In this document: positions 54,579-54,951 of the stretch, piece after piece
How positions within the stretch are numbered: the stretch's first letter is position 1
Layout: the number at the start of each line of letters is the position of its first letter
Notes under the pieces: model-generated
Seen by the model: only the letters and a program-made list of their open reading frames with translations
The model's database searches: none
Told to the model about the DNA's origin: nothing
Position numbers and translations under genes: made by a program
From: Eledone cirrhosa
Taxonomy: Eukaryota
Direction: 5' to 3'
DNA: 64,000 nucleotides
Assembly (NCBI GenBank): GCA_964016885.1
Contig: OZ024750.1
Span: 31,434,001 to 31,498,000, forward strand

Positions 54579-54951
54579 AAACTATGCCTGAAGCTAAATT
54601 GTAATTCTATTCTATTATAAGCTGAGCCAATTTAATACAGCTTCATATGCAAATGAGATTAATGACCTCATTTACACAGGCAAGAAAACCATATATTACC
54701 GCCTGTTTTCAAAGTCCAGAAGTTGCAAGAATGAGAAGCATCGTGCTGATGTGAACCAGTTCAGTTCGAAATGCGCATCCACAATTGTCCCCCTTGCTTG
54801 CTTCTGCTGGACACCGCCTGACGGCGTTAGTCGGTGGTGTTTTGGCTCTGCAAATGTTTATTTTAAACATACCGTATTTCTTCTGAAATACTAAATTCCA
54901 ACACCATAGCTGCATTCAACTATGCATGAAGCTAAATTGTAATTCTATTCT
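54579..54951 (+). mobile_element. Retrozyme-like 338-nt unit with ~34-nt terminal redundancy and a central hammerhead (54743-54782, core CUGAUGU)
   Basis: aactatgc.tgaagctaaattgtaattctattct occurs twice; GUG CUGAUGU GAAC..GUUC GAAA UGCGCA UC CAC. Confidence 0.8.

Follow-up and report, generated by a model that had tools for sequence, protein, structure and literature searches.

Penelope-like elements (PLEs) occur as partial tandems with inverted arms and a tail of 30-40 bp, show a bias towards microsatellites and give rise to non-autonomous derivatives (PMC8557442, PMC9977147), and the tail has been described as the stretch between two internal start sites of reverse transcription (PMC11167929). 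A circular template was proposed for PLEs in 2014 (PMC4209133) and circles were shown for retrozyme RNAs in 2020 (PMC7229834), and animal retrozymes, many of them monomers, have been argued to be non-autonomous PLEs (bioRxiv 10.64898/2026.07.22.740005). In the available parts of these publications, to which the comparisons below refer throughout, the choice of the reverse transcription start and the role of the hammerhead in PLEs are described as open (PMC8557442, PMC11167929).

The locus considered here lies in a stretch of 64,000 nucleotides of Eledone cirrhosa contig OZ024750.1 (the window) and carries a 338-nt element that resembles PLEs and their non-autonomous derivatives in its partial tandem, its tail and its location in a favoured microsatellite target such as (TA)n (Craig et al. 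2021, PMC8557442; Frangieh et al. 2024, PMC11167929). Reverse transcription of PLEs starts inside the RNA downstream of an uncleaved hammerhead (PMC11167929), as it probably did for the 338-nt element, and the inverted 5' arms of PLEs (PMC8557442) recur in the elements neighbouring it; the 34-nt terminal repeat may be equated with the published tail on the grounds of length and position. Unlike autonomous PLEs, the 338-nt element holds no open reading frame for reverse transcriptase and GIY-YIG endonuclease, as seen upon an ORF check. The putative start lies 172 nt from the cleavage site as compared with about 85-92 nt in the anole element (calculated from the coordinates in PMC11167929), and the overlap of 2-7 nt between junctions in the window and the target tract contrasts with the non-homologous sites used by the anole element in vitro (PMC11167929).

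With the non-LTR animal retrozymes (Cervera and de la Pena 2020, PMC7229834; Li et al. 2026, bioRxiv 10.64898/2026.07.22.740005) the 338-nt unit shares a type I hammerhead, low GC content, absence of coding capacity and a good fold, and it falls into the retrozyme range of size and composition (150-450 nt, GC below 50%, non-coding); mollusc retrozymes measure 350-390 nt, and mobilisation by PLEs has been proposed for retrozymes. Compared with the active retrozymes of Li et al., the element is non-tandem, with a single hammerhead in 54580-54951 where active non-LTR retrozymes have at least two, which fits their 'monomer' class, and its core is not the intact consensus, as it has U at position 9 or misses A9. 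From plant LTR retrozymes, in which both long terminal repeats carry a type III hammerhead, it is set apart by a motif that is type I and located outside the repeat.

The minimal PLE hammerheads (Cervera and de la Pena 2014, PMC4209133) likewise possess a short helix I, a G10.1-C11.1 pair and a palindromic helix III suited to a double hammerhead, but their consensus places 8 nt (CUGANGAH, with several CUGAUGAU examples in the supplement) before helix II, the 338-nt element 7 (CUGAUGU). As the additional base of the consensus is located between positions 9 and 10.1 (PMC4209133), CUGAUGU can represent either A9U or CUGAUGAU minus A9. A precedent for attachment by short complementarity of the RNA to the 3' end of a repeat, next to a hammerhead, is provided by the telomere-attached Athena and Coprina PLEs (PMC8557442), which, however, have no endonuclease, use telomeric overhangs and match over whole repeat stretches, in contrast to the 3-nt overlap with an internal microsatellite observed here. 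A unit plus tail, a helix III that is palindromic, insertion into microsatellites and a template that is circular or multimeric are all features already published for PLEs and retrozymes. A literature search, with most subscription papers beyond its coverage, found nothing on octopus PLE hammerheads, on a natural A9U family or on PLE starts selected by microhomology; natural A9 variants were not found in the section 8 text of PMC3088659 or in the available parts of PMC9901934, PMC6155905 and PMC3376415, while the supplements of PMC4209133 and of the bioRxiv study may list some.

The 338-nt element and its hammerhead

Table 1. Coordinates of the 338-nt element, its hammerhead, the flanking tracts and the neighbouring families and units; the labels family A, B and C were coined in this analysis.
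Feature	Position	Strand	Remarks
Element proper	54580..54951	+	one 338-nt unit + 34-nt tail = 1.1 units
5' copy of terminal repeat	54580..54613	+	33/34 identical to 54918-54951
3' copy of terminal repeat	54918..54951	+	end is the putative reverse transcription start, 172 nt downstream of cleavage site
Left extension of repeat, diverged	54553..54579	+	exact 9-nt match, then 15 nt
Minimal type I hammerhead, palindromic helix III	54740..54785	+	predicted cleavage after 54779
Core CUGAUGU	54746..54752	+	A9U, or A9 lost from PLE-type CUGAUGAU
Helix I	54740-45 / 54780-85	+	5/6 pairs
Helix II	54753-56 / 54764-67	+	4 bp, closed by G-C
GAA	54768-70	+	hammerhead core
Helix III, palindromic	54771-78	+	precedes predicted cleavage after C54779
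(TA)6	54533..54545	+	at 3' end of family C arm 54467-54532; likely left half of target
(TC)50 tract	54949..55049	+	3-nt overlap with element end; either the target or grown later
(TA)10	55050..55070	+	common to 3' end of opposite-facing family A copy; likely right half of target
Family A	25709-25917 (+), 55071-55280/55290 (-)		2 copies; identical 3' end site, on (TA)n
Family B	19230-19552, 26921-27157, 60260-60546, 61516-62076, 62804-63543		8 copies or arms
Family C	54020-54273 (-), 54467-54546 (+)		inverted arms; one 3' end site, 2/2
514-nt unit	59513-60071		45-nt repeat, 44/45 identical; overlaps (TA)n by 4 nt
519-nt unit	23953-24756		285-nt repeat (281/285 identical) + 146-nt inverted 5' arm; overlaps (TA)n by 4 nt
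201-nt unit	39477-39714		38-nt terminal repeat; consensus-core hammerhead at 39611

The original prediction of a terminally redundant 338-nt unit present in about 1.1 copies holds, the two repeat copies differing in one of 34 columns at a period of 338, and so does the presence of a CUGAUGU core in one minimal hammerhead; of the predicted bounds, 54579 to 54951, the end is confirmed and the start is one base early. Weaker similarity of the repeats reaches left to 54553 (9 differences in 62 columns), including an exact 9-nt match of 54556-54564 to 54893-54901, and is of moderate significance (P=0.004 relative to shuffles, 0.057 relative to 2206 segments of the window). Its divergence is uneven, with 7 of the 9 differences within 18 columns (P=0.02), which the best explanation given below leaves unaccounted for. 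The 15-mer 54565-54579, which fits the element at 8 and (TA)n at 12 of its 15 positions, looks like a hybrid of element and target.

The GC content of the unit is 39.6%, and its longest ATG open reading frame encodes 68 aa in antisense. The fold of the unit beats 100 of 100 shuffles (z -3.9), the antisense strand folds nearly as well (z -3.7) and the segment covering the unit is third among 38 background segments for folding. Of the seven differences between the 15-mer 54565-54579 and the 3' copy, six show the base that an in-phase (TA)n would have; of the three bases of the 15-mer that deviate from TA, two agree with the element. Neither BLAST nor nhmmer, which finds only the unit itself, detected a second copy in the window, and there were no exact pattern matches in prokaryotic genomes and no match in plasmids. 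Comparison of the unit with ten other hammerhead-bearing segments gave no score beyond shuffles (best: 23 of 200 equal or higher), and as these segments include the 3' region of a PLE remnant at 38500-38917, which shows no similarity, no partner PLE was identified.

Thirteen hammerhead-like motifs in the window were parsed by hand. The motif at 54740-54785 reaches a score of 13.7 with a descriptor that allows one core deviation, and five matches scoring at least 13 occur in the window compared with a mean of 0.15 in 20 shuffles. The descriptor overlooked the hand-parsed motifs of the 514-nt unit and the 201-nt unit and those at 38784, 46543, 32265 and 24469 and also gave probable chance matches (34039, 54408), and therefore backs only the chance estimate. 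The bare pattern CUGAUGU...GAAA is not enriched (three matches, mean 0.98, 9 of 100 shuffles as high). Rfam gave no match in the window at gathering thresholds and, at E<=10 in 54000-55400, 15 weak matches with no hammerhead among them, a silence that is read as insensitivity of the models to minimal motifs rather than true absence. Folding as a double hammerhead gains 9.5 kcal/mol over two single folds, and in a circle the hammerhead fold lies about 12 kcal/mol above the minimum.

With respect to the core, a divergence of 1.5-10% per copy leads one to expect an altered core in 18-75% of copies, and decay would therefore be enough to explain CUGAUGU, which most simply may have arisen in this way. 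Pure decay is countered by the deviant cores that run family-wide in the neighbouring families B and A. An A9U core had also been assigned to an unrelated family at 18127; a motif indeed exists there, with U at the cleavage position, but its core before helix II, CUGAUGUA, has 8 nt instead of 7, and each of the two is represented by one copy.

Neighbouring families and the position of element ends

The 338-nt unit is represented by one copy in the window, and all tests of mechanism use neighbouring families. Both copies of family A, which are 92% identical, have a hammerhead-like core with a U3-A8 pair, as known from Schistosoma PLEs. In family C, the arm 54467-54545 is an inverted copy of 54020-54100 and ends on (TA)6; the arms are 79% identical, are set apart by (TC)32 and low-complexity sequence, and a decayed hammerhead-like motif is found near 54161. 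The 3' ends of family B fall on three sites within about 90 nt, taken by 4, 1 and 3 of the 8 ends, and the family includes two head-to-head pairs, each of one short-ended and one long-ended arm, and 140-nt upstream repeats. Position 4 of its hammerhead-like motif is A in seven of eight cases and C in one, never U, and family-wide deviation of the core is better supported in family B than in the 338-nt element.

Among the single units, the 514- and 519-nt units run into (TA)n as originally predicted, and the 201-nt unit has no microsatellite at its 3' end and (TA)n(GA)16 at its 5' end. Two ends are seen 70 nt apart in the 519-nt element and about 90 nt apart in the element at 39209, and head-to-head inverted arms are located at 23807/23953, 19300/19301, 27079/27084 and 39042-39314. 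Three of the four unit-plus-repeat elements have repeats of 34(-62), 38 and 45 nt; an overshoot of at most 62 nt in three of four has P=0.009 under a uniform overshoot, although a high drop-off rate of the reverse transcriptase would also favour short overshoots. On the upstream side, six 5' truncation points (27079, 27084, 19300, 62911, 23953 and about 39143) lie within about 12 nt of hammerhead position 3; four of them belong to family B, with its eight copies, one to the first copy of the 519-nt unit and one to the inverted arm of the 39209 element. Truncation at the 5' edge of the ribozyme rather than at its cleavage site suggests the 5' end of an RNA, a splice site or a pause of the reverse transcriptase.

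Element ends are few and clustered downstream of the hammerhead, not free. The original proposal of priming at any site with permuted ends is thus not supported in the window, as the ends are fixed in families A and C (2/2 each), confined to a zone of about 90 nt in family B and off the microsatellite in the 201-nt unit. A start of reverse transcription in single-stranded RNA was ruled out as a rule, the last 4 nt of the 338-nt unit being mostly unpaired (0.85) and the eight junctions ranging from 0.01 to 0.85. Short complementarity at the 3' junctions, on the other hand, is supported in the window, with an overlap with the tract at all seven measurable junctions (3, 4, 4, 2, 4, 7 and 4 nt), although erosion after insertion would give the same pattern. 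For these hand-picked junctions, in which the commonest end of family B is counted once, P is about 2e-4 compared with local random junctions, and P=0.006 for the four junctions that had not been named in the original prediction; the 201-nt unit is excluded as it has no tract, and ends with unknown continuation are unscored. That elements in the window end where a few bases match the target repeat is the only hint of novelty.

At the 3' junction of the 338-nt element, the 5' copy continues after TTCT with ATTATA and the 3' copy with CTCTC. The predicted merging of the 3' copy into (TC)n at the internal TTCT is evident, but the overlap is 3 nt (TCT), not 4. With (TA)n the same internal site likewise shares 3 nt, and several other element ends in the window have CT followed by (TA)n. 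Of the 21 ends mapped in the window, leaving out the motifs at 18127 and 32265 with undefined ends, 19 adjoin (TA)n, one (54951) (TC)n and one neither. The 5' side of the copy at 54580-54951 shows (TA)6 and the (TA)-like 15-mer, and no (TC)n. In the window (TA)n follows six and precedes one of nine (TC)n tracts, and TC is found on 5 of 116 (TA)n edges in TC-then-TA polarity and on none in the other, so that one TC among about 20 ends has an expected probability of 0.5-0.6. Sites with this polarity include 13874, 29151, 39348, 39442, 54949 and 58861, and a symmetric (TC)n(TA)n(GA)n is found at 39348-39473. The (TC)n tract as the primer is therefore not singled out, as a (TA)n target fits equally well. 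Because 19 of 21 ends are on (TA)n and the overlap with (TA)n is equal, (TC)n may have grown later, and a (TA)n target with later or concurrent growth of (TC)n would be the simpler reading.

Probable origin of the insertion

The window is rich in PLE debris. A PLE remnant at about 16162/16165-17022 (-) has a Pfam GIY-YIG match, the only one among seven translated segments, and five protein matches (16165-17022), of which the only named one is from Octopus bimaculoides, so that the host is octopus-like. In another PLE remnant, at 36839-38917, a GIY-YIG-like frame is recognised by eye though not by Pfam, and a hammerhead with a long helix II is located at 38784, followed by (TA)n. The 338-nt insertion itself is nested, with a family C arm on its left and a family A copy on its right.

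Besides, the window contains a long uninterrupted, GC-rich open reading frame with reverse transcriptase and zf-RVT domains at 11269-13923 (-), a fragment of a non-LTR retrotransposon ORF2. A near-perfect palindrome at 27593-28765, about 1.17 kb long and with two arms of some 580 nt, represents a fold-back insertion or an assembly artefact. A dispersed repeat of about 190-200 nt, which presumably resembles an octopus SINE, has many copies (2572, 3876, 18469, 25229, 31168, 32388, 44710, 47184, 51993 and others) and stands in tandem at 31168-31685; a copy of the 55049-55280 sequence lies within a long (TA)n array at 25469-26688, and long 31-nt and 18-nt minisatellites occupy 916-2570.

The reading that is rather more probable than any other course of events is that 54580-54951 represents one aged insertion of a small non-autonomous PLE, a monomer of retrozyme type. 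Observed are a unit plus tail, a central minimal hammerhead, microsatellite flanks and, elsewhere in the window, PLE protein remnants. A master copy would have been transcribed as more than one unit, either as an uncleaved linear multimer or as a ligated circle, and the GIY-YIG endonuclease of an autonomous PLE would have nicked (TA)n between the earlier family C and family A insertions. The telomerase-like reverse transcriptase may then have started at an internal site of the RNA, within a zone that is particular to each family and lies downstream of the hammerhead (by 172 nt in the 338-nt element), and pairing of 2-7 nt to the nicked repeat would have favoured the exact start base. The enzyme would have traversed the intact hammerhead and continued for 34-62 nt past a full unit, giving the known tail. 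Afterwards (TC)n would have grown at the TCT|AT junction and the core would have lost or changed A9. Since the copy is longer than one unit and runs across an intact cleavage site, the template would have been a circle or an uncleaved multimer, between which DNA does not discriminate as an uncleaved linear dimer gives the same product. A PLE origin is favoured by repeats of 34(-62), 38 and 45 nt that match the 30-40-bp PLE tail, by the palindromic helix III, which fits PLE hammerheads, by inverted arms as in the published PLE layout and by insertion into a microsatellite without discernible target duplication, as in non-autonomous PLE derivatives. Judged from its sequence, 54580-54951 is probably best filed as a non-autonomous PLE-type insertion working like a retrozyme, and not as an active tandem retrozyme.

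A circular RNA on which any microsatellite 3'-OH, here of (TC)n, primes at any complementary site to give freely permuted ends seems unlikely, even though it would account for the 2-7-nt overlap at seven of seven junctions and for three ends of family B that are all at AT-rich sites, and although the 338-nt unit offers eight TCT/CTC and five TATA/ATAT sites. The fixed ends of families A and C, the restriction of family B ends to about 90 nt, the 19 of 21 ends on (TA)n, the lack of (TC)n at the 5' junction and the 201-nt unit off the microsatellite all argue against free priming; a compound (TA)n(TC)n(TA)n tract at 39311-39441 nevertheless indicates that a cut at such a boundary is possible. 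A circular template for copying of more than one unit has been proposed (PMC4209133), and circles of retrozymes have been demonstrated for mussel, coral and axolotl, but the damaged core would hinder circle formation and the six 5' ends at the 5' edge of the core are what a linear RNA end or a pause of the reverse transcriptase gives.

Another course, in which the start is strictly fixed as in the anole PLE, where it is not homologous to the target in vitro (PMC11167929), and slippage or microhomology-mediated deletion later erodes the element to a tract-matching site, is considered equally unlikely. The family B copies at 60260 and 62068 have different ends and continue into similar sequence after (TA)n, as a deletion from a longer form would leave, and the copies are aged (92% identity in family A, 79% between the family C arms). 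However, the youngest-looking elements, the 519-nt (281/285) and 514-nt (44/45) ones, already overlap the tract by 4 nt, and both family B pairs combine a short with a long arm as the published one-sided tail predicts. Most improbable is that the 34-nt repeat arose as a target-site duplication flanking an insert of 304 nt, or by local tandem duplication without any involvement of reverse transcription: one copy is compatible with it, some non-LTR elements are known to produce long target duplications (PMC9977147) and those of retrozymes, when present, are said to exceed 4 bp, but the same layout recurs in four unrelated hammerhead-bearing units, the repeat lies inside the microsatellite flanks and its similarity extends past 34 nt.

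A bolder version of the insertion of a non-autonomous PLE, which is speculative and has a small though real chance of being correct, holds that in this octopus-like genome telomerase-like pairing of 2-7 nt with the nicked microsatellite picks the start of the PLE reverse transcriptase, that stutter can write tracts such as the (TC)n and that the hammerhead would be a landmark for folding or reverse transcription more than a catalyst. The role as a landmark is suggested because family B is without U4 in eight of eight cases and because six 5' ends lie at the 5' edge of the core. The literature search found no description of such pairing-guided, stuttering initiation with a landmark hammerhead. 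If this were true, CUGAUGU could represent the consensus of its family, and PLEs would not only insert into microsatellites but also seed them.

By itself, the 338-nt insertion matters little, as it is one more small PLE-type copy, and its neighbours matter more. As the genome is dense in short microsatellite-flanked copies, a count of ends versus flanks over thousands of copies would be cheap. If pairing takes place at the birth of the copies, this would contrast with the sole in vitro PLE system and would bring the endonuclease-bearing PLEs closer to telomerase-style priming.
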